A stretch of 64,000 nt of DNA from an uncultured virus (IMG/VR IMGVR_UViG_3300008111_002316) (IMGVR_UViG_3300008111_002316); one strand, 5' to 3'; positions 209 through 62,810 are shown, counted from the stretch's first letter. Program-made: numbers and translations. Notes: a model not told the origin generated them from the sequence alone.

Positions 209-210
209 AA

Positions 211-399: not shown

Positions 400-479
400 A
401 TTGCCGCCCCCTGCACCTTCCCCACCGGTGCGTTGCTGAGGGTGGGGACTGATGCAGGTTCGTTCAACTCGACTTGATA

Positions 480-11440: not shown

Positions 11441-11875
11441 TTAAAAGTCTTTTGAGCTTAACTGTCTAAAAAATATTTTGTCCTGAAGGTTAATCCAAAA
11501 ATAATAATTAGCATATAAAATATCAGGATGAATAAAAGGAATTTTGTGATAATCAAATAACTCAAATTGGTCATCTTTCAAACCAATAACTAAGCCGTTA
11601 TAGACATCCCATTCGTAGACAGAATCAGGAGTGGCGTTAGGATTTTCAGAAGGGCGTATAGAGAGCAAATCAGTATCTTTAATCAAAATCCACTTATCAG
11701 GATTAAGAATATCTTTAGCAGAACCACCACCAAAAGCATACCCAAAAAAGGAATAATTTTGATTGTCGGAGTATTCATTCACATTAAGCCAAAAATCTTC
11801 AGAAAGATTATTAACAGCCAACATTAGTGAAGCATTATAAGGGGAGTAGATGGTTAAATCGATATTGTTATTCAT
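11441..11875 (-). CDS. Hypothetical acidic/aromatic protein, candidate immunity protein
   Basis: 144 aa; overlaps the stop of the upstream toxin-like gene. Confidence 0.5.
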   Translation of the reverse strand: MNNNIDLTIYSPYNASLMLAVNNLSEDFWLNVNEYSDNQNYSFFGYAFGGGSAKDILNPDKWILIKDTDLLSIRPSENPNATPDSVYEWDVYNGLVIGLKDDQFELFDYHKIPFIHPDILYANYYFWINLQDKIFFRQLSSKDF

Positions 11876-16284: not shown

Positions 16285-16325
16285 TTAAAAACCCAACGCT
16301 ACTAGAGTGTTGGGCGATTTTAGGT

Positions 16326-19218: not shown

Positions 19219-19851
19219 ATGCGTCAATCCACCGACAAAGACTTTGTTAATGCACTAACTTCTTACTGGGAGTTCACAAGCACTACTGTCGTATATCCTT
19301 CAAAAAAATCACTGGAATACGTCACTCTCGGTTTGATTAGTGAAATCAACGAATTGGTTAACAACTCTTTTGCTTTGCTTATGGCTCATCAAGAAGGTGA
19401 GCTAGAGGTCGAAGAAAGTGTTTTAGACATAGAACGAACCAAGTTGCTTTTAGAACTAGGCGATATACTTTACTATGTGACTCGTTTGTGTATTCACCTC
19501 GGTTATCGCTCTGTCAAAAATTTTCTAGTTAATGCTAAAATTTATCAAGAGTCGAAATTTAATAAAAGTCTTGAAAAATCTGATTTTTTCTCGACTTACA
19601 TGACTCTTAATCTTGCGTCGGGAACATTAGCTGGGCTTATCAAAAAATATGTTCGTGGTGACTCCAATTATCAAGACTTGTCTCTTTTACAGGTTTTTTG
19701 TGAATCCTCCCTATTCATTCTGTTCTTGACAATAGACGAACTAGCCTATGAATTGAATAGTGATTTGAAAACTGTCATGGACGATAATACTAATAAATTG
19801 ACAAAACGGAAAAATGCGGGTACTATTCAAGGAGACGGGGATTTCCGTTAA
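19219..19851 (+). CDS. mazG: MazG-like nucleotide pyrophosphohydrolase (tandem domains)
   Basis: LGLISEINE..ELGDILYYV; C-terminal NKLTKRK..IQGDGDFR. Promoter TTGACA-17-TATTAT at 19159-19187. Confidence 0.75.
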   Translation: MRQSTDKDFVNALTSYWEFTSTTVVYPSKKSLEYVTLGLISEINELVNNSFALLMAHQEGELEVEESVLDIERTKLLLELGDILYYVTRLCIHLGYRSVKNFLVNAKIYQESKFNKSLEKSDFFSTYMTLNLASGTLAGLIKKYVRGDSNYQDLSLLQVFCESSLFILFLTIDELAYELNSDLKTVMDDNTNKLTKRKNAGTIQGDGDFR

Positions 19852-22016: not shown

Positions 22017-22810
22017 TGTACTACTTAGCCCTAAATCAATAAAACTTAATCATATAAAGGGTTTTAACATTTTAGACTTTAAAAAACCCCATTTTAAAAT
22101 CAATAAAACTCTGTCATAGTATGGCTTTGACCCGTTTGTACTATGTAGTGGGGGGGATAACTTTATTTTTTTTATCTTCCACCTCTTTAATCATCGCATT
22201 AAAAAACTTTCATGCTTTTTTTGCTTTCCCACCCTTACCCCGCACCCCAAAAATATTTTTCCACTACCACTTGACATTTTGTTTATTCCCATGCTATGCT
22301 ATACACATAGCGAAAAATAGAGTGGGGGATAGGATACTAGAGTGCTTTAATTCTAGGGTATTCACAAATCAACCTATCAAAAATTAAATATATATTTTAC
22401 ATATTTAGCCCACATTCACCCTTTTACCCATTTTTTACCTCTCAGACCATTACAAATTGGTTTATTGGTAAAAGTATCATGACCCACTCTGAAGTGCGGG
22501 AAAAGGCTGATAAACGAAAAAGTCTAACCCCTCCCCTATCAAAGCAAAAAACAGTTTTGAATCGTTGAGGCTTCCAAATGCTTCAATCTGCTCAATCTAG
22601 ATGGTATATGTTTTTTAGTGCCTAAACTGCGATGATTAAAGAGGTGGAAGATAAAAAAAATAAAGTTATCCCCCCCACTACATAGTACAAACGGGTCAAA
22701 GCCATACTATGACAGAGTTTTATTGATTTTAAAATGGTGTTTTTTTTAAGTCAAAAATGTTGAAACCCTAGATATGATTGGGTTTTATTGATTTTGGGCT
22801 AAGTAGTACA
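22017..22810. repeat. Inverted-repeat element 1: arms 22017-22198 and 22628-22810
   Basis: 22089-22198 is the exact reverse complement of 22628-22737 (110 bp). The outer parts of the arms are imperfect. Confidence 0.95.
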
Positions 22811-22864
22811 ATAAATTTTTGAGTATTGTCCTTTTGGGAATTTTTTGTTATGCTGGGAACAGCT

Positions 22865-24180
22865 TTAGACCCGCCTTTGTTAACATTCATTAACATTTAC
22901 GGTAGTTTACTACCACGGTTAAAGTCTAAAAGATTTTTCTCAAACCCCTTGACATTCTAACTACCATTTGTTATACTTTAATTATTGCAACCCATTTAAT
23001 GCCATGCTATTAGGATTTAAAACTGAAATCAACCCTAATAAAACCCAACTAACTCTCCTAGCCCAAAATGCTGGAGTAGCTAGACACGCATGGAATTGGG
23101 GGTTAGCTCTCACTAAACAGATTCTTAACCATAATAAAATCAATCCAGATGAGAAAATTAAATTCCCTTCAGCTATTGATTTACATAAATGGTTAGTTGC
23201 TATCGTTAAAAGAGATAATCCTTGGTACTACGAAAGCAGTAAATGGAGTCCGCAAAATGCTCTTCGAGCCTTGTCGGACGCATGGCAACGCTGTTTTAAA
23301 AAAGTATCTGGAAGTCCTAAATTCAAAAAGAAAGGTAGAAATGATAAATTCACTCTTGATGGTTCTATCACCGTAGGACATCAAAAAATAAAAATACCTA
23401 ATTTAGGTTGGGTTAAGACTTTTGAGAGATTACCACAAGGGATTTCACCTAAATCAGTTACCCTGTCTAAAAAAGCTGATAGATGGTTTATTAGCTTCAG
23501 AATTGAAGTAGAACCCACTAATCCTGAGAAATCAGTTGATGTAGTAGGTGTTGACCTAGGAATTAAAGCCCTAGCTACACTATCTACAGGGGAAACTTTT
23601 CAAGGTTCAAAACCCTATAAAAGATTGGAATCTAAGTTATCCCGCTTACAATGGTTAAACCGACATAAAACGATTGGTTCTAACAATTGGAGAAAAGCCC
23701 AATTAAAAATAGCTAATCTGCATAGAAAGATTGCTAACATTCGTAAAGATACATTACACAAATTGACTAGCTATCTGACCAAGAACCACGGTATGATAGT
23801 TATTGAAGATTTAAATGTATCTGGAATGATGGCTAATCATTGTCTAGCCAAAGCTATTCAGGATATGGGGTTTTACGAGTTTAGAAGACAGTTAACATAC
23901 AAAACAGAGTTATACGGGTCTAAACTGGTAGTAGTAGATAGATGGTTTCCGTCATCTAAAACTTGCTCTAACTGCGGAGTTAAAAAGGATAAATTGACTC
24001 TATCAGACCGAATTTTCAACTGTGATAGTTGTGGGTTTGAAATAGATAGAGATTTGAATGCTAGTATTAATCTAGCAAAAGCGGGCAGTTAGCTCGTGTT
24101 AGCTTGTGGAGTGGAGTTAGGCCGTCCTTACCACAATGAAGCAAGAAATTAATGTTAATGAATGTTAACATTTTTATAAC
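22865..24180 (+). mobile_element. Non-autonomous IS607/IS200-IS605-type element carrying tnpB only
   Basis: Left end contains TGTTAACATTCATTAACATT and right end contains its reverse complement. No tnpA. Confidence 0.75.
23004..24092 (+). CDS. tnpB: TnpB RNA-guided endonuclease
   Basis: RuvC motifs GVDLG, IEDL and DRDLNAS, plus CxxC..CxxC zinc ribbon. All three catalytic residues are present. Confidence 0.95.
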   Translation: MLLGFKTEINPNKTQLTLLAQNAGVARHAWNWGLALTKQILNHNKINPDEKIKFPSAIDLHKWLVAIVKRDNPWYYESSKWSPQNALRALSDAWQRCFKKVSGSPKFKKKGRNDKFTLDGSITVGHQKIKIPNLGWVKTFERLPQGISPKSVTLSKKADRWFISFRIEVEPTNPEKSVDVVGVDLGIKALATLSTGETFQGSKPYKRLESKLSRLQWLNRHKTIGSNNWRKAQLKIANLHRKIANIRKDTLHKLTSYLTKNHGMIVIEDLNVSGMMANHCLAKAIQDMGFYEFRRQLTYKTELYGSKLVVVDRWFPSSKTCSNCGVKKDKLTLSDRIFNCDSCGFEIDRDLNASINLAKAGS

Positions 24181-25824: not shown

Positions 25825-26039
25825 GGCGTTCTATCAAATCCTGAGTTATTAAGATCAAAAGCGCAATAAACAAAAGTCCCGTTAACGGGATCAATTGGTC
25901 TTAATTCGTTAACAGAAAAAGCGCAATAAACAAAAGTCCCGTTAACGGGATCAATTGGTCTTAATTCGTTAACAGAAAAAGCACAGTAAACAAAAGTGTT
26001 ATATAGAATTGTATCTGGCCAGTACAACCATCTAGGCAT
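25821..26039 (-). CDS. 72-aa protein made of 20-aa repeats
   Basis: 60-bp tandem repeat at 25857-25998; stop overlaps the next ATG (ATGA). Confidence 0.6.
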   Translation of the reverse strand: MPRWLYWPDTILYNTFVYCAFSVNELRPIDPVNGTFVYCAFSVNELRPIDPVNGTFVYCAFDLNNSGFDRTP

Positions 26040-26093
26040 ATTGAATACTTAAGGAAAAATCTATATTAACAGGATTAGAGATATTAGAATTTA

Positions 26094-26414
26094 CAGTAGA
26101 TAAAAGATTAACATTCGTAAATATCTAAGGGTATCAACTCCCTATTTTGGGTAGCTTAGTTAGGAATTTTATACGGATTCCTCTAAAACTAATCACTCTG
26201 CGAGCTAATTGCACGCTTTACCATAGTTAAAGGGGGTTTTGACCCGTTATAATTAAGCTTGGTTTTTGCCTAACTAATTTTGTTGGGTTAACCCCCGTAT
26301 AACAGATGGTCGATAAGATGTCAAGGGGGGGTGGGTTGAGAAAAATCTTTTAGACTTAAACCCTAGTAGTAAACTACTGTAAATGTTAATGAATGTTAAC
26401 AAAGGCGGGTCTAA
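26094..26414 (-). mobile_element. Gene-less mini-element with the tnpB element's left end and promoter, and a right-end-like terminus
   Basis: 26296-26414 is the reverse complement of 22865-22977 with few changes. Ends ATATTTACGAATGTTAATCTTTTATCTAC. Confidence 0.75.
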
Positions 26415-26438
26415 AACTAAGCACTTTCAAAATTTGAG

Positions 26439-47589: not shown

Positions 47590-48099
47590 ATGCAACACTT
47601 AAATTTAACCCACCAACAACAAATCAAAGCTTTTTATAGCAATCAAACTTTGAGTCTGATTCAATCACAATTGCAAGCCATTAAACGTGCTATGTCTGAC
47701 TGTGATGTATCTGGTGAAGATTATATGCAAGAAGGTATTCTTGTCGTTTTGAAAAAATTGAAAACTTGGAATCCCTCTAAAGGTTCCCTAACCACCCACT
47801 GTTGGCTAGATTTGCGATGTAAATTTAATCGGTTAAAACACCGTCAGACTCAGCAATATTTTCTTTCTAATTCTCTGAAATTTTCCACCTTTTCTACTGA
47901 TTCTGAAGAACACAGGCTAATTTTGGCTAGTTTCTTAGAATCCTTAACACCGATAGAAAAACAGATTGTTGCTTTGCGATGGTCGAGAAATAGTAATTAT
48001 CCACTAATTTGCTCTGAACTGAAAATATCCTTGCAAAAACTGAAAAATCATGTTAAGATGATAAAAGATAAATTGACCTTAGCAGGATTTCACCCCTAA
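47590..48099 (+). CDS. Phage sigma-70-like factor
   Basis: EDYMQEGIL..WNPSKG.LTT (region 2); LTPIEKQIVALRW..ICSELKIS (region 4). Promoter TTGCTT-17-TATAAT at 47528-47556. Confidence 0.75.
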   Translation: MQHLNLTHQQQIKAFYSNQTLSLIQSQLQAIKRAMSDCDVSGEDYMQEGILVVLKKLKTWNPSKGSLTTHCWLDLRCKFNRLKHRQTQQYFLSNSLKFSTFSTDSEEHRLILASFLESLTPIEKQIVALRWSRNSNYPLICSELKISLQKLKNHVKMIKDKLTLAGFHP

Positions 48100-49043
48100 T
48101 GACTACTACTCTTAAAGCCTTGGTAATAGCTCAAACTTTCAATCACCGTACAAAGTCGACTATAACCACTTTTCAAATCACCATGCCACGTTTTGTTTTG
48201 GCTCAATTGAACAAACATCGCATTTTGTCTTCTAATACAGAATCTAATCGTGCTGTTCCTATTGCTAAAAAAGACGCAAAACTTCTTGCTAACCCTTATT
48301 TTCCCCTCTCTTGGGGTACTAACCAAAAAGGAATGCAGTCTGGTGTACCATTACAGGGCTTCAAGCACTATTTGGCTAACTTGATTTGGTTTTTATCTTT
48401 GCATTCTCAGCGAATTTACGGTAATCTATTACATCGACTAGGTGTACATAAAGAAATTGTCAATCGCTTAACCGAACCTTTCCAATTAGTTGATATTGTT
48501 ATTACTGGTACTCAATGGGAAAACTTTTTTAATCTACGGACTAATATCGCCGCTCAACCTGAAATTCGAGAAATAGCCTTATTAATGAAAAAAGCTATTA
48601 CTGAGTTTCCAGATTTAAAAATTACTTCTGACGAGGTTTTTCTTCATCTTCCCTATGTCCATCCTGAAGAAAAAGAAAAATACGAAGACGACTTTTTGGT
48701 ATTATTTGCCATCTCTAGTGCAAGATGTGCCAGAGTTTCGTACTTAAACCACACTGGTAATTCAAACGTTACCGCAGATGTTAAACTTTTTCTCAGCTTA
48801 GTTAAAAGCGGTCATTGGTCTGCACTTGAACACTGTGCGATAGCTTCTAATCAGTTTGCCCTTTTTGGTAACTTTATTGGTTGGATTCCAGTTCGTAAAT
48901 TGTTTGAGGGAGAATCTGGCGATTCGGCTATGGATAATATTCCCTATCTTAACCCTAAAGAAATTAAAGAGGTTTCTTCTTTCCCCTCTTTAAGCTATTC
49001 TTCCACTTCTGATTCCTTGAGTCAACTATTTCACATTTTGTGA
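48099..49043 (+). CDS. thyX: FAD-dependent thymidylate synthase
   Basis: PRFVLAQLNKHRILSSNTESNRA, WENFFNLR..AQPEIR, SARCARVSY, GHWSALEH. Confidence 0.8.
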   Translation: MTTTLKALVIAQTFNHRTKSTITTFQITMPRFVLAQLNKHRILSSNTESNRAVPIAKKDAKLLANPYFPLSWGTNQKGMQSGVPLQGFKHYLANLIWFLSLHSQRIYGNLLHRLGVHKEIVNRLTEPFQLVDIVITGTQWENFFNLRTNIAAQPEIREIALLMKKAITEFPDLKITSDEVFLHLPYVHPEEKEKYEDDFLVLFAISSARCARVSYLNHTGNSNVTADVKLFLSLVKSGHWSALEHCAIASNQFALFGNFIGWIPVRKLFEGESGDSAMDNIPYLNPKEIKEVSSFPSLSYSSTSDSLSQLFHIL

Positions 49044-49051
49044 TTCGTAGT

Positions 49052-49414
49052 TCAAGGAAAACTGACAAAGGAAAATCCCAGCCCACCGCCTTTAAAAGGG
49101 TTATATCGTACATCTAATGCCGTTTGGTGGGCTAATTCTTTTAATCGTCTCGTCCCTTCTCTTTTTAGTCCATCTATGATACTTTGATATTGCAATTTAA
49201 TACCTTCAACTTCTACAACATAAAGTTTTTCTACATATTGTTGAATTTTTTCATCAATCTCATCTATTGTATCAACAAGTGAAATCACTCTATCGTATCT
49301 GATTTCGTCTTGAATTTTTTCAAGCGCAATCATTATATCTTGTTCGTATTTGGGGAACTCTTCGTATCCTAACACTAATCTAATTCTTGATACTTCTTCG
49401 GGACTAAATAACAT
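49052..49414 (-). CDS. Putative head-tail adaptor
   Basis: RIRLVLG N-terminus; lies downstream of the capsid gene. Confidence 0.5.
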   Translation of the reverse strand: MLFSPEEVSRIRLVLGYEEFPKYEQDIMIALEKIQDEIRYDRVISLVDTIDEIDEKIQQYVEKLYVVEVEGIKLQYQSIIDGLKREGTRRLKELAHQTALDVRYNPFKGGGLGFSFVSFP

Positions 49415-51093: not shown

Positions 51094-51125
51094 TTTCTTT
51101 GTGTTTGTTGTAGATTTTTCTTTTG

Positions 51126-51187
51126 CAGTTGATAAAACATTAACATTCGTTAATATCTAAGGGTATCAACTCCCTATTTGGGGTAGC
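51126..51187 (-). repeat. 62-bp copy of the mini-element right end in the capsid leader
   Basis: 58/62 identical to 26094-26155. Confidence 0.9.
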
Positions 51188-52354: not shown

Positions 52355-52738
52355 ATGGAATTAAAAACCGGTGATAAATTATTTGCTCTAGAACGCAGGT
52401 TATACTGTGTTGACACCTTCCCTTATGTTTTCGTAGTACACTCAGTTACCCCTAAACTTGCCTATATTCAACCTTTTGACAATAATGACTACCAACAATC
52501 GTCTAAATACACAGTTTATCGTACCTTAGTCTCTCATGAATCCAGATTTATAGCTAATTGGAGAGGAAAACCTCACCCTGCTTTCTCTTCTAGCTTCGAC
52601 TATCTGTGGCTATGGGATGAAACTTTAAACAGTTTGTCGCCTTCTAAATCTAAAGACCTTGTTTTTTCTGAAACTGAACTTAAACTTTTGGAAGTTCAAA
52701 CATTTAATCAAATTTTGGAGGATTTTTCTGATGTCTAA
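52355..52738 (+). CDS. Hypothetical protein
   Basis: TTGACA-17-TATATT promoter at 52288-52316. Confidence 0.55.
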   Translation: MELKTGDKLFALERRLYCVDTFPYVFVVHSVTPKLAYIQPFDNNDYQQSSKYTVYRTLVSHESRFIANWRGKPHPAFSSSFDYLWLWDETLNSLSPSKSKDLVFSETELKLLEVQTFNQILEDFSDV

Positions 52739-53156
52739 ATTATTAAATATTGGTGACAAAGTTGCAAGTATAGGTTTTGCTGGAAAATCATGTGGGAGCG
52801 AATATTTTAATATATTCCATATTGACCATGTATCTGCTAAACGCTGTCGTGCTTTCTGTACCAATAGCCAAAGACTCAAAGATGTCGTGTTTACCCTCGA
52901 CCGTACACCTTATTATCAAGACGGCATTGCTTTCTATCATTTTCACGGTTCTTATGGTGGTGTCGATGCTGTTTTAGTTACTGAGGCTATTCAAAAGCTC
53001 TACGAGAACTATTCCCGCATCCTTCGCCTAAAAAAACAGGTAAAAGCCATTTACCAATGGTCTGAAAATCTTTCTTTGCACACTACTACCGATTTATCTG
53101 TTATAATCAAAGCAATCAACACAATCGATTCTTTGATTAAACCAAAAAAAAAATGA
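52731..53156 (+). CDS. Hypothetical protein
   Basis: Start MSKLLNIGDK overlaps the upstream stop. Confidence 0.55.
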   Translation: MSKLLNIGDKVASIGFAGKSCGSEYFNIFHIDHVSAKRCRAFCTNSQRLKDVVFTLDRTPYYQDGIAFYHFHGSYGGVDAVLVTEAIQKLYENYSRILRLKKQVKAIYQWSENLSLHTTTDLSVIIKAINTIDSLIKPKKK

Positions 53157-53785
53157 CTAACCATACTCTAACCCTATCTGCTTGTCTAAGCTCAATTGAC
53201 TTAGTTCAAATTCCCAATGCAAATTTTAATTTTGGGAAATATCCAGTGACTCAGGCACAATATCAGTCTGTAATGGGAACCAACCCCTCTTATTTCAAAA
53301 ACAATCCACAAAATCCAGTAGAACAAGTCAGTTTTGACGACGCTCAAGCTTTTTGTCAGAAATTAAGTCAAATAACAGGGAAAACCTATCGCCCACCAAC
53401 GGAAGCCCAATGGGAATATGCTTGTCGGGCTGGTACTACTACTCGCTTTTATTATGGCAATGATGCTAATGAGTTAGGAGACTACGCTTGGTATTTCAGA
53501 AATTCTCAGGGAACAACCCATCCCGTAGGGCAAAAAAAGCCTAATAATTGGGGACTTTATGACATGATTGGTAATGTTTGGGAATGGTGCGCTAGTTATG
53601 GCGGCGCACCAACAGACGGCAGTGCTTGGATAGAAATTAGCAATAAATCTTACAAAGATATTGTCGTGCGTCGGGGAGGCTCTTGGGTTAACGATGAAAT
53701 TAACTGCTATTGCCCCTACCGAGGCTTTCTCCATCACTCCATCTCAGATTTTAACTATGGTTTTCGGGTAGTCTGTGACAATTAA
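53153..53785 (+). CDS. FGE-sulfatase (SUMF1/C-type lectin fold) domain protein
   Basis: YPVTQAQY, PVEQVS, PTEAQWEYACRAG, GLYDMIGNVWEW, RGGSW..GFRVV. Confidence 0.9.
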   Translation: MTNHTLTLSACLSSIDLVQIPNANFNFGKYPVTQAQYQSVMGTNPSYFKNNPQNPVEQVSFDDAQAFCQKLSQITGKTYRPPTEAQWEYACRAGTTTRFYYGNDANELGDYAWYFRNSQGTTHPVGQKKPNNWGLYDMIGNVWEWCASYGGAPTDGSAWIEISNKSYKDIVVRRGGSWVNDEINCYCPYRGFLHHSISDFNYGFRVVCDN

Positions 53786-53803: not shown

Positions 53804-53974
53804 TCAGTTATCATTCGCTTGACTCATCATGATAAAATTATCAATCTCATCGTCCATTGTTGGCGCAAAGTCTTCTTCATCTTTTTTGTTAATGGCAATC
53901 ACTGTCACTAAAAACATACCAAACAAAACGATAAAAAAACCTAAAATCAAGCCAGTTAATAAAATTAATTCCAT
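53804..53974 (-). CDS. 56-aa single-pass membrane protein (not in the ORF track)
   Basis: MELILLTGLILGFFIVLFGMFLVTVIAINKKDEED...; AAGGA RBS. Confidence 0.55.
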   Translation of the reverse strand: MELILLTGLILGFFIVLFGMFLVTVIAINKKDEEDFAPTMDDEIDNFIMMSQANDN

Positions 53975-54043
53975 TTTTTTTTATCCTTAAAAAAGAGCCA
54001 ATCCCCTACAGAATTGGCTTTTTGAGAAAAACACAGGAGCAAA

Positions 54044-54343
54044 CTAAGCTGTAAGTTTAGTCACACAGGCGCTAACAAAACTAGCAGGAGTAGTGACCCC
54101 AGCACCAGCCGCAACAGCCTGAATAGCATTTACAAAAGCGGTATCTTTAAGAGCAAATTCAAGAATAGCTAAAATAGCGTCTCGTTGCAATAATTGGTCA
54201 GCATTTGCCGAACCATTAATATTGTAACCATAGGTTGCCCGGAGAATATCTACACCACTATTTACATATTGGGGGTCAAGTAGATAGCTACCACTGGCTG
54301 GATTTGCTCCCCCTTTGACTGCGGGGGTATAAACTAAAGGCAT
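54044..54343 (-). CDS. Capsid cement/decoration protein (Mic1 gp47-like)
   Basis: 99 aa. Sequence recalled as close to the Mic1 cement protein (not verified). Late motif upstream and terminator downstream. Confidence 0.65.
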   Translation of the reverse strand: MPLVYTPAVKGGANPASGSYLLDPQYVNSGVDILRATYGYNINGSANADQLLQRDAILAILEFALKDTAFVNAIQAVAAGAGVTTPASFVSACVTKLTA

Positions 54344-54431
54344 ATTTGAATCACCTACTTTAAAAAATAACGTGGAATTTGGGGTAAACGTCTAAACGTT
54401 TCGCACCTACATATCAATTTGGGCGATTTTA

Positions 54432-54920
54432 TCAATCTGTCCACCAAGATATTGGCAAATCCCCTTCTATTTCTTCACCATCAATTGTTGGTTCATATTT
54501 TCCAGTTAAATATGGGGAATCTCCTAAACTATACGGCAATCTGCATTGAGCTTTTGTTTCCGTATCCATACGATGTTCTGTGTATATTTTCGTACTATTT
54601 GGGTTTAATTGGTCATCTAACGACATTAACAATAATTCCTGTTTATGTTCTTTATACCAATCAGAAACCTCCTTTAATTGTTTTCCTTTTAATTTGGTCA
54701 AGTGTTCTTTTATGATTCCATGCACCGTACCCTCATCTGCCCTATACTTTGTATAGATTTTTCCATACCTATTTTTAAATCTGTCTCTTAATGTTGTCCA
54801 CGGGATTCCATATCTTTCAGCTAAACTTCTAACCGATACTCCCCCTAGCTTATAGATTTCAAACAACGTTTCTGTCTGTGTTTTGATTTCTTCTTTGGTT
54901 TTATTTGTTTTTGCTTTCAT
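54432..54920 (-). CDS. HTH DNA-binding protein
   Basis: SVRSLAERYGIPWTTLRDR. Confidence 0.7.
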   Translation of the reverse strand: MKAKTNKTKEEIKTQTETLFEIYKLGGVSVRSLAERYGIPWTTLRDRFKNRYGKIYTKYRADEGTVHGIIKEHLTKLKGKQLKEVSDWYKEHKQELLLMSLDDQLNPNSTKIYTEHRMDTETKAQCRLPYSLGDSPYLTGKYEPTIDGEEIEGDLPISWWTD

Positions 54921-55071
54921 CGAAAAAATTACCTCAACTGTGACACCTAAATTTTAAGTTTACATAACTATATTTGTCAAAATCTGTCTTTATTCGCTCA
55001 GTTAACCCCTTTAATAGTTAACCTTAAATCTATTCCTGAACAAGTGTGAACCCCTTTTTGATACTTAGAAT

Positions 55072-56320
55072 GTGACACCTAACCTGTACTACTCAGTAAA
55101 AATCAATAAGATTCAGTCATATCAAGGGTTTTAAATTTTTGGGACAGTTTAAATACTGTTTAAAAATCAATAAAACCTAATCACAGTATAGGTTTAGTCT
55201 GTTTTGTACTATGTAGTGGGGGGGATAACTTTATTTTTTTTTATGATAGGGGTATCTAATCAACACAGTGGTTTTTCCTCTAAAATGAGAAACAAGTACC
55301 TTTTGAGAGTATTTGGAAGCTACGAGTACCTTTAAGTACCTTTGAAGATTTAGTTTCCCAATTAGTTGTGTTTTGGCGTAGGTCATCTTTTTTAATGTGT
55401 TTTCAAGGTTTTGTTCTTTGACCACTCCTTATACTAAACCGTGAAACCCTTACACTGCATAGGTTTCAGCCAATTTTTACACAAAAATCTGGCATATCTA
55501 TATATATTATATCTTTTTTTTTTGTTAGGTTAAATGTTTCAAGACCCTAGGGTAATTCCTAGTCTCGTATCCATGCTTATATCATATACGGTTTTGAGCG
55601 AAATGTCAAGAGGTTTTTTAAAGATTTTTCTTTTTCCAAAAGATTTCCCACCCTAAAGCCTTTCTCAGAGAGGATTTCAACACTTTTAACATTTTTTTCC
55701 TTATGTTTTAATATGCTTAACATGGCCTAATAGGGTAAACGTGGTATTGTCTAAGGGGGTTGGAGTGTGAGGAAGGGGTAGAAAATAGCCCTGTAAACCT
55801 TACAGTCTTATTAAGAGAGTGAATATAGCCTAAACGGGTAAAAATGTCTTTAAGGTGTTAAAAAGTAGCAATTGGAGAAAGACCGAGAGTGAAAGGATTA
55901 AAAACGAGTGAACTACTCACAAGAAAGGATAGGCCAGTGGTTTAAGTATTTGTACCTAAGTAATTATACCTATCACCCAGTCCTTTAAAGCCCGAACATC
56001 AAAAACTTGCAAAGCTTTTTAAAACAAGACAAATTGTTAAAGCTATAAACGAAAGGTACTCAAAGGTACTTGTAGCTTCCAAATGCTCTCAAAAGGTACG
56101 AAAAGCTTTTTTTAGGGGTTTTTCACTGTGTTGATTAGATACCCCTATCATAAAAAAAATAAAGTTATCCCCCCCACTACATAGTACAAAACAGACTAAA
56201 CCTATACTGTGATTAGGTTTTATTGATTTTTAAACAGTATTTAAACTGTCTCAAAATTACAAAACCCTTGATATGATTGAGTTTTATTGATTTTCACAAA
56301 GTAGTACACTTAAGGTGTCA
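55072..56320. repeat. Inverted-repeat element 2: arms ~55072-55344 and ~56053-56320
   Basis: 55143-55269 versus 56124-56250 differ only by one base in a homopolymer run. Inverted GTACCTT iterons lie at the inner ends. Confidence 0.95.
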
Positions 56321-56681
56321 CTATAGGACGGAAATACTAAACTACCTAAAAAAAGCTAGACAGCCTATTGAGGCTAAAATTAAGAAATTAGCTAAGGATT
56401 AGACTTGAAGGTTTTGGTGATTGCAACTTAATTGCTAATCTTACTCAAAACTCAAAACCGAAAAAATTGCGTATTTTTGGGCATTTTACCCTTGAGAAGT
56501 GTTTCAGAGCTAATTTGGGTTAGGCTATTAAACCTTATCACAGTATTTTTTTAGTCTTTCATATTCAGATAATGAGGTACGGACTTTAAGAGTATAATAA
56601 TTTCTAGGCTTTTTACTTGACATTTCCTGTAAGCTTATGGTATAACTAAATATAGTTTAGCATCTTTTTCTGCCTTAAGTT

Positions 56682-57143
56682 ATGTCTAATTCTCCAAAAG
56701 TACAACTAAATTTTAATGCTCCTGTTTATAGTGTAGCTGGAAAGATTGTCAAAGATCAAGTTGTAGAATTAAAACCTGAGTATATTGTTAGATTTATTGC
56801 AAGGGTTTTTCCTGGTGGAAGCGATTCAGTTATTAAAGAATTGCTTGTAACCGATATTTCAGTCGGGATTACCTCTGAATTAGCCGAAGAGTCTGATAAT
56901 TTGTTTTCAACTCATGCTGATGTTCCTAGCCTTCGTGTTTACATCGCACCAGAAATTTTTGAAAAATTTCTTATTACTGAAACAGGAACAAATTATAAGG
57001 CTCAGACTGTTGACGTGCCAAGACTATTAGAATGCTGGGAAGTATTAGGGTTTCCTCTTTATATTGATACTACTAAATTTAACTTTTATAAAGGTTGGGC
57101 TATAGGTTTTGGTGTAAAGACTGGTATCCCAAAAAATCTTTAG
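56682..57143 (+). CDS. Hypothetical protein
   Basis: 153 aa, with TTGACA..TATAAC promoter upstream. Confidence 0.6.
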   Translation: MSNSPKVQLNFNAPVYSVAGKIVKDQVVELKPEYIVRFIARVFPGGSDSVIKELLVTDISVGITSELAEESDNLFSTHADVPSLRVYIAPEIFEKFLITETGTNYKAQTVDVPRLLECWEVLGFPLYIDTTKFNFYKGWAIGFGVKTGIPKNL

Positions 57144-57209
57144 ACTTCTTACCATAAGCTTTCTATCAAGCTTATGGTATATTTAGATAAGAATAAAAGA
57201 AGGTCGACC

Positions 57210-57980
57210 CATGAGAAAAATATGAGAAAGCAATTATGGTAAAAAGTACCAATAATGCCAGATGAGAGAATTATGAAAGAAAAATGAGAAAAATATGAAA
57301 AAGCAATTATGGTAAAAAGTACCAATAATGCCAGATGAGAGAAATATGAGAGAAAAATGAGAAAAGGGGTGAAAGTAAAAAGAAGAGATAGAGAGAAAGG
57401 AAAGCGGGAGGGTGACACACACAAAGTCGTAAAACCTGAGAATGATAATCATTCTCATTTTACACAAAGTCCTAAAACCTGAGAATGATAATCATTCTCA
57501 TTTTACACAAAGACTCTAAACCTGTGAATACTTTAGTCTACAAATTAAGGGGAGGGCAGGACAGGGATGCCATGAGTATAAATACCTAGACCACACACAC
57601 AAAGGCTCAAAACCTGTGACACAAAATTGCAATATGAATGTCACACAAAAGTCATACAATTCAAAACCCTGTGACACAAATCACAACCTCCTTGTGATAA
57701 AAAGAAATGCAGGGGCAAAATTGGAGTTTGCGCCATGTGTAAGAAAAGCTAAAAAAGAAAAAGAAATGCAGGGGTAAAAATAGAGTTTGCGCCAATGTAA
57801 AAAAAAAAAGCTAAAAAATTAAAAGAAATGCAGGGGTAAAATTGGGGTTCGAGCCACGAGCGAGTAAGAAACAAAAAAGGTTAGGTTAGGACAGGCATAC
57901 TATAAGTATAAATACTTAGACCACTTGTAATAAAGGTTAGGACATGGATACTATGAGTATAAATACTTAGACCACTAGCT
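57210..57980. repeat. Cluster of several different short direct repeats
   Basis: 73-bp-period x2 (from 57213), 43-bp-period x2 (from 57419), AAAAGAAATGCAGGGG x3, AGTATAAATAC(C/T)TAGACCAC x3. Confidence 0.9.
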
Positions 57981-58199
57981 ATCACAGGGAAAACCAGATA
58001 AAATGATGTTTCTAACCCTATCAAAGAGGGTAAAGGACGAGCTACTGTGAGGTGAAAGACGGTTAAAAAATGGAATATATATATATAGAGGAAAAATAGG
58101 AGATGTGTGCCAATTCTGAAAGTGTCCACTAGAGCGGGACAAGTCAAGATAAATAGTGACATAATAGGTACATAGAGAAAAGACCATAGGAGGTCAAAA

Positions 58200-58529
58200 A
58201 TGAAGTACACAGAAATCATAAGCATAATCAGAATCGTAGGATTAAATTGGTACGGGCAGACTTGTGCAATGTTTAAAGAGTTAAAACGCTATGACGTAGG
58301 TAATTTAGAAGACTCAGGATTAAGTGCGGAATTGAGCAAAGAACAAAAAAGAGAGGTAATTGAAGGATGGTTAGCAAAGAATAGCGGGGATTTTCAAATA
58401 ATCTTAGACTTTGAAGCTGACATAGAGTTAGGAGATGGGAGTAATGTTACGTTAGATTGGCTAAACGAAGATAGCGAGTGGGAATATATGGACTGCACGG
58501 GTCGTTTAGCCAATCTACCGTGGTTATGA
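58200..58529 (+). CDS. Small acidic early protein (family A)
   Basis: GGAGG RBS; paralog of 58734..59126. Confidence 0.7.
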   Translation: MKYTEIISIIRIVGLNWYGQTCAMFKELKRYDVGNLEDSGLSAELSKEQKREVIEGWLAKNSGDFQIILDFEADIELGDGSNVTLDWLNEDSEWEYMDCTGRLANLPWL

Positions 58530-58532
58530 GGA

Positions 58533-59323
58533 TTAGTATAAACCTCAAAAAATCCTGAGAAAACCCCCGAAGTGGTAATTAAAAAAGACCAAAATAGGGG
58601 GTTACATAAAAAAGTAAAGTAACATAGAGAGGACAAAGATATGCCAATTTGAAAAGTGTCACAAACAAGTTGACAAAGTAGATGAAGGATGCCATAATAG
58701 GTACATAAGCAAAGAAACACAGGAGTAACAAAAATGACTTACACAAAGGCACTCGATAACGGGGATGTAACATGGTTCAGAATACTAGGGCAAGATTGGT
58801 TTGGTAAGACTTGTACACTGGACATAGAGTTAAACAAGTATGACATAGGAGAATTAGAAAACTTAGGATTAGGATTAGGAGAATCCGAAAAAGAAGCGAG
58901 AGAGGTGATAAACCAATGGTTGTTGGCCGCCGATATTTATGACCCACAAGGCTTTTGGAATCCTGATTTTAGTTCTGTAACGGATTATGATTGTCAGATT
59001 GAGCTAAGTGATGGAAGTTATTTTAGTCTAGATTGGGAAGACGATACAAACTATGCTAAGTATCGAGAAATAATGCTTAGTTACCAAGAGGCAATGTATG
59101 AAGCAATGTATGGTGATGAGGAATAGTATAAACCTCAATAAATCCTGAGAACACCCCCGAAAAGGTAATTTAAAAATACCAAAATAGGGGGGGGGGTTAC
59201 ATAAAAAAGGAAAGTAACGTAGAGAGAACAAAGATATGCCAATTTGAAAAGTGTCACAAACAAATTGACAAAGAAGTTAAAGAATGCCATAATAGGTACA
59301 TAAGCAAAGAAACAGGAGCTAAA
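58533..59323 (+). repeat. ~200-bp direct repeat carrying a promoter/operator module (58533-58733 and 59123-59323)
   Basis: Near-identical from TAGTATAAACCTCAA to the RBS/ATG. Confidence 0.9.
58734..59126 (+). CDS. Small acidic early protein (family A)
   Basis: RILGQDWFGKTC..ELNKYDIGELE, versus RIVGLNWYGQTC..ELKRYDVGNLE in the paralog. Confidence 0.7.
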   Translation: MTYTKALDNGDVTWFRILGQDWFGKTCTLDIELNKYDIGELENLGLGLGESEKEAREVINQWLLAADIYDPQGFWNPDFSSVTDYDCQIELSDGSYFSLDWEDDTNYAKYREIMLSYQEAMYEAMYGDEE

Positions 59324-59632
59324 ATGTCACCGTCACATTCGAGAGAACCGTTAGTAAAGAGATTGTTACCATTAATAGTAGAATGGGGTAACAAAACAGT
59401 AACAGATCAAGAATTTCTGAGTACCTGTGATAAGTTCTACAAAATTCTAGAGGGTCGCCAGTGTCCACATTGTGGAAGTTATGATGTGGTAATCAGGGCG
59501 TATAAAGAAACAGCTAAGGGAGAGAAATACCCAATGTTTCAATGTAAGGACTGCAAAAGAACCTTTTCAGGGGTCAAAAAATTTAATGGTAAATTCGGGG
59601 ACAGTTTAGAATTTGACACACTTGACAAGTAA
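59324..59632 (+). CDS. Zinc-ribbon protein
   Basis: CPHCGS...FQCKDCKRTF. Confidence 0.7.
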   Translation: MSPSHSREPLVKRLLPLIVEWGNKTVTDQEFLSTCDKFYKILEGRQCPHCGSYDVVIRAYKETAKGEKYPMFQCKDCKRTFSGVKKFNGKFGDSLEFDTLDK

Positions 59633-59679
59633 TGCAGATTGTGACATAATAGAGACATTAGTAAGTTAGGAGTAAATAA

Positions 59680-60015
59680 ATGGAGACTGAAATCACTAAA
59701 GTAATATTCCGTAAATGGAATAAGTCGGTGGACAAAGAACAAGGAATTATCGCAATATTCCCTGAAGATATTGGAACAATGTCAAGTTATACTTGTAGTG
59801 CGTGGGAATGGGTAGGTGAACATGGTGCTTGTGACCCTGCGGAGGTAATCAAAAACTCAAAACCTGCTAAAGAGATTGAATACCAAGAAATCAAAAATTA
59901 CCTAGAAAATCATTACGGGTACAAGTTAGAGGTTAACCAAAGACTACGTTACAATGCCATAGAAATCAGACAACAAAAAATCCGGGAGATAGGTAATGGA
60001 CACTCAAAAAACTAA
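59680..60015 (+). CDS. Early hypothetical protein (family B)
   Basis: TKVIFRKWNK..GIIAIFPE; paralog of the next gene. Confidence 0.7.
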   Translation: METEITKVIFRKWNKSVDKEQGIIAIFPEDIGTMSSYTCSAWEWVGEHGACDPAEVIKNSKPAKEIEYQEIKNYLENHYGYKLEVNQRLRYNAIEIRQQKIREIGNGHSKN

Positions 60016-60328
60016 AGTAATATTCCGTAAATGGAATAAAGATATAGACCCTAAACAAGGCATAATCGCAATATTCCCAGAGGAAATAGTATCACTGTCA
60101 TTCTTAGATTGTGATTCATGGCAAAGAGTCGGAGAATATGGTGATATTAATTCTTGGAGTCCATGCAATCCTGAAGTAGTAATTAAGGGTTCAAAACTTG
60201 CTACTGAAAGTCAATATCTAGAGGACAAAAATTACCTAGAAAATCATTACGGGTATAATCTAAAGGTTCTGAAAAGAATACCCAGAACTGCCATAAAGGT
60301 AAGAAGCAAAAACATAGCCCAATTATAG
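59996..60328 (+). CDS. Early hypothetical protein (family B)
   Basis: Same motifs, plus NYLENHYGY. Confidence 0.7.
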   Translation: MDTQKTKVIFRKWNKDIDPKQGIIAIFPEEIVSLSFLDCDSWQRVGEYGDINSWSPCNPEVVIKGSKLATESQYLEDKNYLENHYGYNLKVLKRIPRTAIKVRSKNIAQL

Positions 60329-60337
60329 GAGGGTATC

Positions 60338-60634
60338 ATGACACAGGACAACAAAAGAAATTACAGCTTTTTGGTTAAGGTAAGGGATAAGGACGGAAAA
60401 CTTATTCCGTGCGACGAAACAACTGACAACACACGGATTAGCTTTGACTTAGCTGAGTTGACCGATAAGCAGGTAATTTCTCACCTAAAATCAACGGGGA
60501 AAACATTAAAGGCTTGGATGCCAGATGATCGAAAAATCGGAATAGATGCTTATGTCTTTGATTCTATTTCAAGGACTTATACGCTCCTTTTTTCGTGGTA
60601 TGATGTGGATGTTGAGAAAGTTGTGAAGCATTAA
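60338..60634 (+). CDS. Early hypothetical protein
   Basis: GGAGG RBS. Confidence 0.65.
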   Translation: MTQDNKRNYSFLVKVRDKDGKLIPCDETTDNTRISFDLAELTDKQVISHLKSTGKTLKAWMPDDRKIGIDAYVFDSISRTYTLLFSWYDVDVEKVVKH

Positions 60635-60685
60635 TTATCAGGTATCAGTTATCAGTAAAAAACACCCATTAAGAGAGAAAAAAAC

Positions 60686-60913
60686 ATGACAGAAATTAAG
60701 GAATACACTAGAAGACTCACAATCAACCTAGATGTAACATTATCTGCAAAAAGCGAAAAAGAAGCCTTAGAATTGTTTGAAAATATCTACCCGCTTATCA
60801 GTTTAAGCTATATGGACATAGAGTTAAACAGGTATGACATAGAGGATGAGATACCTGAACTCATTGATTGGGATACTCATATCGACACAGCCGATTGGGA
60901 GATAGAGGATTAA
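60686..60913 (+). CDS. Small acidic early protein (family C)
   Basis: Paralog of 61612..61803. Confidence 0.65.
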   Translation: MTEIKEYTRRLTINLDVTLSAKSEKEALELFENIYPLISLSYMDIELNRYDIEDEIPELIDWDTHIDTADWEIED

Positions 60914-60961
60914 TGACCAGGTATCAGTTATCAGTAGCCATTATTTAGGAGTACCAAAAAG

Positions 60962-61165
60962 ATGAACTTTACCTTTTTTGATCTAGGCTATGCAGTGAAA
61001 TTGACCAATGGGGAAACCGACATTTTACTACAGGGTGAGGATGCTGAAATCTTCTTAAAACAAGTCGATACCCTTAAGGAATTATGGGAAAATGGCAATC
61101 CTAACTATGAAGTTTTCCCTAGCTACGAGAAACATTTAGAAGTTTTGATCGAGCCTTATTTTTAA
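60962..61165 (+). CDS. Early hypothetical protein
   Basis: AGGAG RBS. Confidence 0.65.
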   Translation: MNFTFFDLGYAVKLTNGETDILLQGEDAEIFLKQVDTLKELWENGNPNYEVFPSYEKHLEVLIEPYF

Positions 61166-61217
61166 TCAGTTCCAGTTATCAGTTATCGGTAAACATTAAC
61201 CATTTAGGAGTAGAAAA

Positions 61218-61541
61218 ATGTACCAAAAATTAAGCACCGATGAAGCTATTAAATTACTGAAATATGATCATAGTGCTGGTTGGTCATGGGAGGGTGCTAC
61301 AGCTTTAATTGAGTACCTAGAAAACTTAGAGGATAGTGATAAGCCTATCAAATTTGATAGAGTCGCTTTGCGGTGTGATTTTTCAGAATATGATAGCGTC
61401 CTAGAGGCGGCGGAACATTATGATTTTATTCCCCCCGATGATGAGGATGAGGATGAGATAGAAGCGGAGGCACTTAAATATTTGGAGGATCGGACGACCG
61501 TAATTCAATTTGAGGGTGGTGTAATTATTAAGGACTTTTAA
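61218..61541 (+). CDS. Acidic early hypothetical protein
   Basis: AGGAG RBS; DDEDEDE tract. Confidence 0.7.
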   Translation: MYQKLSTDEAIKLLKYDHSAGWSWEGATALIEYLENLEDSDKPIKFDRVALRCDFSEYDSVLEAAEHYDFIPPDDEDEDEIEAEALKYLEDRTTVIQFEGGVIIKDF

Positions 61542-61611
61542 TTAATCAGTTATCAGTTATCAGTTATCAGTTATCAGTTATCAGTAATTAACACATAATA
61601 GGAGTAAAAAA

Positions 61612-61803
61612 ATGAAGGAATATACAGGGAGTTTAAACCTCACAATTGAGGTCACGGTTAAGGCAAAAAACAGAAAAGAAGCGTCGTCAATGTTTGACGA
61701 TTTATACACTCAAATCAGCATAGAAAATGACGGGAACCAATTGATAGAGATAGTTAGCGATAATCTGGGATTACTCGAAAATAGTTGGGATATAGAAGAT
61801 TAA
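61612..61803 (+). CDS. Small acidic early protein (family C)
   Basis: KEYT..L.L...WDIED. Confidence 0.65.
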   Translation: MKEYTGSLNLTIEVTVKAKNRKEASSMFDDLYTQISIENDGNQLIEIVSDNLGLLENSWDIED

Positions 61804-61953
61804 GTAGGAGTTATCAGTTATCAGTAAAAAAAGCCAAAAAGTCAAGAGTATATGTGACAGTTTATAAATTGTCACAACCTACCAAAAAACCCCTTGACAA
61901 TCCAAGAGATAAATGACATAATAGGTACATAAGCAAAAAAACGGGAGTACATC

Positions 61954-62535
61954 ATGAACTATCAACCGCAATATCTTAAAAAATGGACAGAAGCACCAAA
62001 TTATTTAGGGATGGATTTAACGGACTTCTATGTAGTAGCGGCTGAATCAGAGCAGAGTGATTCAGTAGATATGAGTAATTATCGAGTATGGCATCGATTA
62101 TTTCCAGACTTAGAAGAGTTTAGTTTTGGGGGTTGCATGGAATTTAAAGCTTTAATGATTCATAAAGATTCTTTGCTATTAGAAGCAATAGATGAGAAAA
62201 AGAAAAGCTTGGAAGACTACTCAATACTAGATGAACAAGACTTGTCTGACTTAGAATATGAGCAGTGGTATGAGTATTGGTCAAATTGGGGATATATTGA
62301 GTGTTTTAAGGAATTGTTAATAGCAATACCTGAGTTAAAAGATGATGAACGAGTAACGAGTCTGGATAATAAGTGTGTATTAACCAGTGATGAGTTAGGT
62401 GAGTTAATTGAGGATTTTGCTAACGATTTTGCGAATCTAGACGATTTTAGTATTAGTTTTAATTTTAGCGAGTCTGAGAAGGAATTGCTACTGAAAAGAC
62501 TAGAGGACATTTTAAGCCGAACTGAGGAAAACTAA
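61954..62535 (+). CDS. Acidic early hypothetical protein
   Basis: Has its own promoter, and a terminator at 62544-62571. Confidence 0.7.
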   Translation: MNYQPQYLKKWTEAPNYLGMDLTDFYVVAAESEQSDSVDMSNYRVWHRLFPDLEEFSFGGCMEFKALMIHKDSLLLEAIDEKKKSLEDYSILDEQDLSDLEYEQWYEYWSNWGYIECFKELLIAIPELKDDERVTSLDNKCVLTSDELGELIEDFANDFANLDDFSISFNFSESEKELLLKRLEDILSRTEEN

Positions 62536-62810
62536 CATAAACAAAAGGGTGAGTTAATGTACTCACCTTTTCTTGTCTATACCAAACAAGGCAGAAATAT
62601 GTAGGAGTTGTGTAATAAAGAATGAATAATGCAGGTATGTGTATCAGGTTTGTATATAAGCAAAACTAATAACAAAGATAAGAAAAAATTATATAAGGTA
62701 AAGTTATAGCAAGGGCGGATAGGGATAAGAAAATAAAATACGAAAAGTATTGACACAGGACTGAAAAGATAGCATAATGGGTACATAAGCAAACAAAGAG
62801 GAAAAAGACA

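Follow-up and report, generated by a model that had tools for sequence, protein, structure and literature searches.

The strand composition of a Microcystis phage genome reverses at a 1.25-kb non-coding composite inverted repeat, here called element 2. Because the composition of the whole genome flips there regardless of gene direction, element 2 is the best candidate for a replication origin, and it may well be, or contain, the main bidirectional origin of lytic replication, which would bear iterons and be assisted by transcription. An origin appears to be the best single explanation of genome composition and comparative anatomy, which are its sole basis, and we hold this view with about even confidence; the main rival is a regulatory cassette at the boundary of gene modules.

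In the literature searched, the replication origin of Mic1-like cyanophages is undescribed. The terms "skew", "inverted" and "origin of replication" are absent from the Mic1 genome paper (PMC7156551), and among the matches listed for cyanophage GC skew and replication origins, none concerned the Mic1-like group. A defined origin would aid the engineering of Microcystis phages, which have been proposed for bloom control, and would provide a rare phage case of clean, orientation-independent replichore skew.

Phage genome and architecture of element 2

The window, by which we mean the whole analysed stretch of 64,000 nucleotides from the uncultured virus IMGVR_UViG_3300008111_002316, derives from a Mic1-like Microcystis siphophage. 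Its TerL shares 91% protein identity with that of Microcystis phage Mic1 (MN013189.1), and the alignment with Mic1 spans most of the window at 79-96% nucleotide identity. PHROG and Pfam scans display a siphophage gene order: a minus-strand block at 3-22 kb spans RNA ligase to TerL, MazG and PhoH; a TnpB insertion comes next, followed by tail and head genes (26-55 kb), of which most are minus-strand and several plus-strand; 57-63 kb is occupied by small early genes of the plus strand, with repeated promoters, and beyond them lies minus-strand nrdB. For Mic1, the available portion of the published expression data describes gp49-gp73 as early genes in a single direction, and assigns gp10 (primase) to cluster M1, gp48 to L1, gp47 to L2, gp50 to E2, gp74 to M2, gp94 to L1 and gp17 to M2 (PMC11237433). 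The early genes gp49-gp73 of Mic1 lead rightward away from the region of element 2, with the late genes gp48 and gp47 on its left.

In the window, element 2 consists of two arms (55072-55343 and 56052-56321) around a spacer of 708 nt, and the arms match in three blocks: 55072-55241 with 56152-56321 (92%), 55219-55270 with 56124-56175 (87%), and 55277-55343 with 56052-56118 (82%). Its parts are the following:

55072 to 55241, plus strand: outer left arm, a copy of a unit of about 160-190 nt that is dispersed in Mic1-like phages
55242 to 55343, plus strand: inner left arm, specific to element 2, with three GTACCTTT iterons; conserved in Mic1, G002 and L047
55344 to 56051, no strand: non-coding spacer, conserved in its left and central part (about 55350-55830), variable with indels at 55840-56030
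56052 to 56151, minus strand: inner right arm, with three mirrored iterons AAAGGTAC
56152 to 56321, minus strand: outer right arm, 92% complementary to the outer left arm

Four full variants of element 2 were compared, namely those of the window (identical in G005, G006 and L065), Mic1, G002 (identical in L054) and L047 (apparently the same in L046), together with two partial variants (L050, L052). The variants are mutually 77-88% identical, and a conservation profile places the best-conserved part of the spacer in its left and central 480 nt. An additional tandem arm is present in element 2 of Mic1, G002 and L047; in Mic1 and G002 it adds a further three iterons.

No open reading frame of the spacer keeps its frame in both Mic1 and G002; small spacer ORFs were rejected as genes, their frames being broken by indels in these two genomes. 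A permissive Rfam search of 54000-58500 found no family, the sole match being a chance-level miRNA at 57429-57506. Readings of arm motifs as DnaA boxes, IHF sites or NtcA sites were dropped as poor matches by eye. A repeat-rich non-coding stretch adjoins element 2 up to 57.9 kb and is far less conserved (67-74% to Mic1).

Strand composition switches at element 2

The original prediction had placed a strand-composition switch at element 2, and 1-kb bins, cumulative minima and change-point scans all confirm it. In 1-kb bins, the GC skew of the plus strand lies between -0.12 and -0.31 at 44-55 kb and between +0.03 and +0.35 at 55-64 kb. The cumulative minima fall inside element 2, at 55123 (GC), 55718 (purine) and 55768 (AT), and thus near the minimum expected at about 55.7 kb; at about 22.4 kb, where a second minimum had been expected, there is no GC3 breakpoint. 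In Mic1, the cumulative GC-skew minimum is found at 52597, beside a TnpB insertion that abuts element 2.

Genes on the "wrong" strand had been said to share the local bias, and at third codon positions they do, with exceptions. Plus-strand genes to the left of element 2 show negative GC3 skew (48099-49043, -0.21; 52659-53156, -0.35; 53153-53785, -0.31), and nrdB, on the minus strand to the right, shows +0.22. Exceptions on the left are 54044-54343 (minus strand, +0.23), 47590-48099 (plus strand, +0.08) and 49052-49414 (minus strand, +0.07), and in the negative zone of the window 14 of 28 minus-strand ORFs still have a GC3 skew above zero. In Mic1, a regression over 98 annotated CDS relates plus-strand GC3 skew to position with +0.155 +/- 0.020 and to orientation with -0.055 +/- 0.020. 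Positive GC3 skew is seen there in 28 of 32 plus-strand and 17 of 18 minus-strand genes of the half to the right of the candidate origin, and in 2 of 22 plus-strand and 8 of 26 minus-strand genes of the other half.

The composition switch is real, and gene orientation is no explanation for it. When gene orientation was put forward as the full cause of the skew, it failed: a model with orientation only leaves almost the entire variance of third-position GC skew unexplained (residual sum of squares: window, 3.00 of 3.11; Mic1, 5.32 of 5.38; G002, 5.00 of 5.03). The residual falls to 1.79, 3.87 and 3.71, respectively, once two breakpoints are allowed, one of them at or beside element 2. The breakpoint scans were run free and blind to element 2. 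Their first boundary fell at 55.0-56.5 kb in the window, at 52.5-53.0 kb in Mic1 (beside the TnpB insertion) and at 95 kb in G002. Change points in gene order fell in the gaps 54920-56682 of the window and 53854-56363 of Mic1, both of which hold element 2, and at 95.3 kb in G002, about 1.5 kb from element 2, which is split between the two ends of that contig. Of 300 permutations per genome, 0 attained the observed value in the window, in Mic1 or in G002. The resolution of the skew is such that the switch is placed only within the gene-free gap at 54.9-56.7 kb; less probably, it could lie in the adjoining, less conserved stretch that extends to 57.9 kb.

A second boundary was found in every genome, with a position that depends on the method: 2.9-9.5 kb in Mic1, 12.7-16.3 kb in the window and 48-49.5 kb in G002. 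In the window it reads:

12700 to 16330, no strand: terminus-like second skew switch (cumulative GC-skew maximum 12708; GC3 breakpoints 13.5 kb and 16.3 kb)

This second switch lies roughly opposite element 2 on the circular map (in Mic1, 2.9-9.5 kb against 52.6-54.5 kb). The 96.8-kb contig of G002 is broken inside element 2, and its cumulative skew extremes are located at 96754, i.e. at the contig end, and at 48755 of 96796, almost opposite each other.

A weaker independent line of evidence, with noisy subsets, comes from 6282 polarised substitutions in three lineages (the window with its near-identical extension G006, Mic1, and G002). The predicted equilibrium GC skew is -0.092 [-0.160, -0.019] to the left and +0.081 [-0.002, +0.154] to the right; third positions of minus-strand genes in the right half are a mismatch, with a predicted equilibrium of -0.069 [-0.269, +0.117] versus a present value of +0.249. 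Local exceptions to the skew occur, for example in the tail genes at 25-28.5 kb, and AT skew tracks purine rather than keto excess.

Iterons of the inner arms

Three GTACCTT copies mirrored by three AAGGTAC copies had been described by eye, and their positions proved correct: GTACCTT starts at 55296, 55326 and 55336 on the plus strand, and its minus-strand mirror copies lie at 56053, 56063 and 56093. The window contains 14 copies in total, 6 of them in element 2. This total is not unusual (8.05 +/- 3.22 in shuffled sequences, with at least 14 in 6 of 100), and it is the clustering that is far from chance: six copies fall in two 48-nt stretches, for which about 0.003 copies per 48 nt are predicted from the 8 other copies over 2 x 64 kb. 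The real repeat unit is an 8-mer, GTACCTTT; base composition predicts 2.5 copies of it in the window, and there are 11:

55296-55303, 55326-55333 and 55336-55343, plus strand: GTACCTTT iterons of the inner left arm
56052-56059, 56062-56069 and 56092-56099, minus-strand mirrors: AAAGGTAC iterons of the inner right arm

The spacing of 30 and 10 bp puts the copies in helical phase. Across the four variants (77-88% identity), 47 of 48 iteron columns are invariant versus 59 of 96 other columns of the inner arms (Fisher p = 5e-7); the first right-arm iteron of G002 reads AGGGTAC. Within each genome, the left and right inner arms have diverged from each other. Retention of the iterons in arms that have mutually diverged points to selection on the repeats and not on complementarity of the arms. 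All GTACCTTT clusters of Mic1 and G002 sit in element 2. A distance of 710 bp separates the two clusters, which flank the AT-rich tract of the spacer unevenly, at 151 and 519 nt.

The spacer core

The conserved part of the spacer contains four features:

55581 to 55609, minus strand: sigma70-type promoter directed leftward (TTGACA 55609-55604, 17 nt, TATGAT 55586-55581; 11 of 12 consensus matches)
55542 to 55565, no strand: conserved hairpin or palindrome centred on CCTAGG, between the promoter and the AT-rich tract
55494 to 55533, no strand: conserved AT-rich tract of low stability, a candidate unwinding element
55443 to 55467, no strand: a further conserved hairpin (GAAACC ... GGTTTC)

The -35 element TTGACA is kept in 5 of 6 element-2 variants (TGGACA in L047) and the -10 element in all 6, and a homologous promoter is present in all 7 of the related type-B spacers introduced below. 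Transcription would start near 55574, which puts the AT-rich tract 41-80 nt downstream. Only three 40-mers of the window are less stable than this tract (-37.9 kcal/mol; mean -48.6, sd 3.3). Among paralogues, the CCTAGG hairpin displays one change that is compensatory and one that is disruptive. A rightward promoter-like site at 55686-55714 was dropped, since its -35 element is not conserved and Mic1 and G002 carry an insertion there. In two metatranscriptomes, seen as assembled contigs only and hence uninformative either way, 54.4-56.27 kb is without an RNA contig.

A dispersed family of inverted repeats

The outer arms belong to a repeat family. The outer-arm unit gave 41 BLAST matches in the window, Mic1 and stretches of the related assemblies G002-G004, and it occurs at 13 places in Mic1, at 4 in the window and at many in G002-G004. 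An alignment of 39 copies from five assemblies, from which one internal secondary match and one shortened copy were left out, displays sharp family boundaries (ACTGTACTAC ... AATCATCGCA). Arms pair facing inward around spacers of 430-900 nt, apart from one solo arm and the extra tandem copies.

A second type of element, here called type B, has at least three copies per genome. It comprises element 1 of the window, the elements at 22k, 72k and 89k of Mic1 and those at 34k, 60k and 79k of G002, whose spacers are 77-97% alike along their whole extent or the greater part of it. Type-B elements and element 2 have a common core, made up of the AT-rich tract, GATAGGTT, the CCTAGG hairpin and a promoter (TTGACA, extended -10 element TGC-TATGCT). 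Type-B spacers carry their own tandem AAATGGCTAA-like repeats adjoining the AT-rich tract. The type-B paralogue of the window reads:

22017 to 22810, no strand: element 1, with the same outer arms as element 2 and a spacer of 429 nt
22271 to 22300, plus strand: element 1 promoter, homologous core
22368 to 22407, no strand: element 1 AT-rich tract, the seventh least stable 40-mer of the window

By the window-wide count, element 1 has no GTACCTT iterons, and element 2 is the sole member of the family to coincide with a reversal of skew. Since the paralogues share outer arms and the promoter/AT core, these parts cannot be what sets the skew switch. A weaker T-to-A shift had been suspected at element 1. 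The change in AT skew there is real and coincides with an inversion junction and a change in gene set, but no switch in GC-skew polarity accompanies it. As to the suggestion of two origins in one phage, there is no breakpoint at element 1 (about 22.4 kb), which leaves a second origin without support from skew. Given the shared promoter/AT core, a role of element 1 as a secondary origin is possible, but unsupported.

All family elements are found at boundaries of transcription modules. In Mic1 they lie between gp48 (L1) and gp50 (E2), between gp73 (E1) and gp74 (M2), beside gp94 (L1), and between gp17 (M2) and gp18 (M1). This location also suits the main rival, in which element 2 is a regulatory cassette between temporal modules, the GTACCTTT copies are operators, and replication begins at another place within or close to the gap, unless the skew arises from something else. 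Family elements mark the edges of early, middle and late blocks in Mic1, which fits a regulatory role equally well; every copy has a conserved sigma70-type promoter; a small gene with a helix-turn-helix (HTH) motif adjoins element 2; and repeated promoter motifs, along with a 7-nt repeat, are reported for Mic1 non-coding DNA in the accessible part of the genome paper (PMC7156551). However, the core promoter has no downstream gene in the elements at 72-73.5 kb of Mic1 (where the flanking genes converge) and at 34 kb of G002. The GTACCTTT repeats are non-palindromic and in direct phase, which makes them more iteron-like than operator-like. Folded against shuffled sequences, single arms reach z = -0.84, -2.15, -0.62 and 0.00, and the putative core transcript z = -1.66, without convincing structure; the arms thus fold no better than shuffled sequence and are not convincing terminators. 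A regulatory cassette also leaves the orientation-independent skew flip unexplained, and we consider this alternative somewhat unlikely.

The family may also suggest that element 2 is a copy of a non-autonomous, MITE-like or just recombinogenic palindromic repeat that has multiplied in these phage genomes and merely happens to lie at the skew switch. In line with such an idea, 39 aligned copies display sharply bounded, long terminal inverted repeats, and the copy content differs among genomes: there is a solo arm in Mic1 (19553-19710) where G003 has a full element, and there are the extra tandem arms of Mic1, G002 and L047. The arms are also the breakpoints of a 25.6-kb inversion (see below), and TnpB insertions lie beside two elements. 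Yet inspection of the flanks of aligned copies found no target-site duplication, and no transposase with matching ends was identified. Two conserved arm patterns have no exact match in 185,579 species genomes, a search that diverged copies would escape. Element 2 is syntenic in all variants, and its iterons and core are more constrained than the neighbouring sequence, which would be unexpected for selfish DNA. Selfish DNA as the whole explanation hence appears decidedly unlikely.

Inversion of a 25.6-kb segment

The segment that runs in Mic1 from 89.6 kb through 0 to 22 kb is inverted in the window, G002, G003 and G004 relative to Mic1, with arms of the family at the breakpoints. Full-length spacer correspondence (the 34k element of G002 with the 89k element of Mic1, and 60k of G002 with 22k of Mic1) places the crossover in oppositely oriented arms. 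The inverted segment is nearly symmetric about the terminus-like switch of Mic1 at about 9.5 kb, with 12.5 kb on each side. By this symmetry no gene changes between leading and lagging status, and both arrangements retain the V-shaped skew. Short-read assembly cannot resolve inverted repeats of such size. The difference between Mic1 and its relatives may reflect an inversion that became fixed, a polymorphism of the flip-flop kind or a choice made in assembly. The paralogous family provides a concrete mechanism for inversion and exchange of modules in these phages.

A more far-reaching, and in our view unlikely, extension would regard the whole family as paralogous origin-like cassettes. Each would comprise long arms, promoter, hairpin, AT-rich tract and tandem repeats of its own. 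Element 2 would be the master, because it alone has GTACCTTT iterons, and type-B elements would be secondary origins or boundary sites of forks and transcription. The arms would drive a 25.6-kb flip-flop which, being symmetric about the terminus, would leave the leading and lagging status of genes unchanged in both isomers, within replichores of bacterial type maintained by selection in a 92-kb phage.

Recombination between arms could, on a smaller scale, turn element 2 itself into an invertible promoter switch. A promoter does lie between long inverted repeats, and family arms have recombined to invert a large segment. But the spacer has the same orientation in all variants with readable flanks (window, Mic1, G002, L047 and L050), no strand-changing joint at element 2 was seen in two DNA runs (contigs only, and thus weak evidence), and there is no recombinase gene nearby. 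Such a switch seems extremely improbable.

Candidate initiator and the neighbouring HTH gene

A replication protein that might act at element 2 is encoded far away from it:

5298 to 7247, minus strand: candidate initiator, a distant P4-family primase / SF3-type NTPase (Pfam, TIGRFAM and PHROG matches)

Its product matches PF19263 (3.5e-11, 44.2 bits, cut-off 27.6), PF00910 at the cut-off and the PHROG family DNA primase; the match to TIGR01613 (8.8e-11, 41.2 bits) is far below the curated cut-off of 108.7. A sequence search of PDB with this homologue gave 0 matches. The gene lies about 48 kb from element 2.

The gene next to element 2 encodes a different protein:

54432 to 54920, minus strand: small HTH protein, homologue of Mic1 gp48 (HTH_psq, 3.7e-5; HTH N-terminal)

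It has generic HTH matches only and 2 homologue clusters, and its AlphaFold model (pLDDT 45.7) is too poor for a fold search. It was rejected as a small terminase or initiator, given only generic HTH matches and no match to a terminase family at E up to 1. That gp48 is expressed late and weakly in Mic1 speaks against the origin reading.

In the SPP1 pac site, two repeat clusters flank a central zone. The paired repeat clusters of element 2 around its central zone recall this arrangement, and element 2 might be a pac region in which the HTH protein, as small terminase, binds GTACCTTT on either side of a cleavage zone. The gene, with its N-terminal HTH, is late in Mic1 (gp48 is listed in cluster L1 in the part of the supplementary table available, PMC11237433), and the Mic1 annotation is without a small terminase. 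On the other hand, the protein is without a terminase-family match even at that permissive threshold, TerL is about 37 kb from element 2, and both the skew and the promoter/AT core shared with paralogues would be unexplained. A pac region is therefore very improbable.

Proposed mechanism and comparison with known origins

Returning to the origin, we hypothesize that transcription from the spacer promoter contributes to opening of the AT-rich tract or provides the primer, in the manner of the lactococcal c2-type origin. The iterons would be bound by a phage protein, with the P4-family primase/SF3-type helicase homologue at 5298-7247 as the leading candidate, and this protein would load the replisome. 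Forks would depart in both directions and meet near the region from TerL/portal to FEN. The outer arms would be generic family sequence and substrates of recombination, and not what makes element 2 an origin.

The P4 ori/crr and the SaPI origins have primase/SF3-helicase initiators, short clustered iterons in both orientations, and an AT-rich region. Element 2 resembles them in its clustered, phased iterons in both orientations, its AT-rich tract, and a phage-encoded protein with distant likeness to the P4-family primase-helicases. It differs in that the clusters are 710 bp apart and asymmetric, the gene of the candidate initiator is distant, and the family match is far below cut-off. Of the bidirectional SF3-type origin originally envisaged, the composition switch, the conserved iterons, the AT-rich tract and a distant P4/SF3-type primase-helicase were thus recovered; the compact layout of SaPI/SF3 origins was not, the initiator being 48 kb off.

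T4 oriF and oriG and the primary origin of T7 consist of a promoter followed by an unwinding element. Element 2 is similar to these in having a promoter 41-80 nt upstream of a very AT-rich tract of low stability, and dissimilar in that its promoter is of the host sigma70 type and that iterons and long arms are added.

The origin of Ceduovirus (c2-type) phages is described, in the part of the source available, as a non-coding stretch that separates early from late genes transcribed divergently; its promoter yields an untranslated transcript, thought to start replication, and the origin can drive plasmid replication (PMC7150918). Element 2 is likewise non-coding and free of ORFs, with a host-type promoter, and is flanked by late genes on the left and early genes on the right. 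However, the c2 origin is experimentally proven and independent of phage proteins, and element 2 is known from sequence alone. The c2 origin is also without long inverted arms, mirrored iterons of the GTACCTTT type and genomic paralogues, all of which element 2 has, and there is no sequence similarity.

The composition pattern as a whole resembles that of bacterial replichores, whose origin lies at the minimum of cumulative GC skew, with a V-shaped cumulative skew, a third-position bias independent of orientation, a second switch roughly opposite, and an inversion across the terminus under which the pattern persists. Unlike bacterial replichores, it is found in a phage genome of 92-97 kb, with an AT skew that follows purines and with local exceptions.

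PeSL of T4-type phages are mobile promoter/stem-loop cassettes. The elements of the present family are far larger (0.8-1.25 kb, with inverted arms of 160-270 nt), and they are associated with one large inversion and no gene shuffling. Like PeSL, they form a repeated, promoter-bearing non-coding module at the borders of gene blocks, which mediates recombination between segments.

Inverted-repeat elements and an apparent 25.6-kb inversion

The spacers of the type-B inverted-repeat elements, paralogues with common outer arms and a promoter/AT core, carry AAATGGCTAA-like tandem units (3-6 per array, period ~11 nt) that immediately adjoin their AT-rich tract; such arrays are present in Microcystis phage Mic1 (MN013189.1) and in the related assembly G002:

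Mic1 22187-22616 and 89014-89457, type-B spacers with AAATGGCTAA-like arrays
G002 34.5-35.0 kb and 60.5-60.9 kb, type-B spacers with AAATGGCTAA-like arrays

The type-B spacers have their own iteron-plus-AT layout, consisting of AAATGGCTAA-like units and the AT-rich tract. In element 1, the type-B member of the window, these units are degenerate.

A 25.6-kb segment encoding, among others, TerL, portal, primase and RNA ligase is oriented in Mic1 opposite to the window (part compared: 1-22810), G002, G003 and G004. The crossover lies within oppositely oriented arms of two type-B elements, and the terminus-like skew switch, the second GC-skew reversal, is near-centred in the segment (near-symmetric). 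The orientation difference could reflect a real inversion, flip-flop isomers or assembly choice.

Element 1 is directly adjoined by a 3.4-kb insert:

22861-22946 and 26333-26418, 86-nt inverted repeat (93%) flanking the insert
22968-24092, IS605-type TnpB gene inside the insert
25849-25968, 60-nt tandem repeat inside the insert

In Mic1 it is element 2, the candidate origin, that is abutted by a TnpB gene (gp49). Since gp49 is distinct from the TnpB beside element 1 of the window, there are two independent TnpB insertions adjacent to inverted-repeat elements.

Gene content differing from Mic1

Window 1-2209 has a G+C of 0.45-0.47 (vs ~0.35 in the remainder) and contains a 562-aa ORF with CARDB and vanadium-chloroperoxidase-N-like domains. 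As no Mic1 match was found for this ORF, the region looks like a foreign module. At 10610-11446, the position of the ParA gene and parS-like palindrome of Mic1, the window carries a different gene:

10692-10994, + strand, Cro/CI-type HTH gene

A partition gene is hence not conserved across the group of Mic1-like phages.

Repeats and early promoters

Two copies of a direct repeat are located 3' of the TnpB insert and 3' of the major capsid gene, respectively:

26090-26155 and 51122-51187, 66-nt direct repeat (92%)

The non-coding region 57150-57980, just 67-74% similar to Mic1 and without Rfam or tRNA matches, is dense in tandem repeats:

73 nt x2
43 nt x2, hairpin inside
54-62 nt x3, GGTTCGAGCC-like motif at end
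43 nt x3

At 58147-62802, small + strand genes are preceded by an early-promoter cassette (TTGACA ... TGNCATAAT ... GGTACATAAGCAAA) that is present at least five times; the region also contains heptamer runs:

60639-61612, CAGTTAT heptamer runs

The cassettes are similar to the repeated promoter motifs of Mic1, and the heptamer runs match its 7-nt repeat, both of which are described in PMC7156551.
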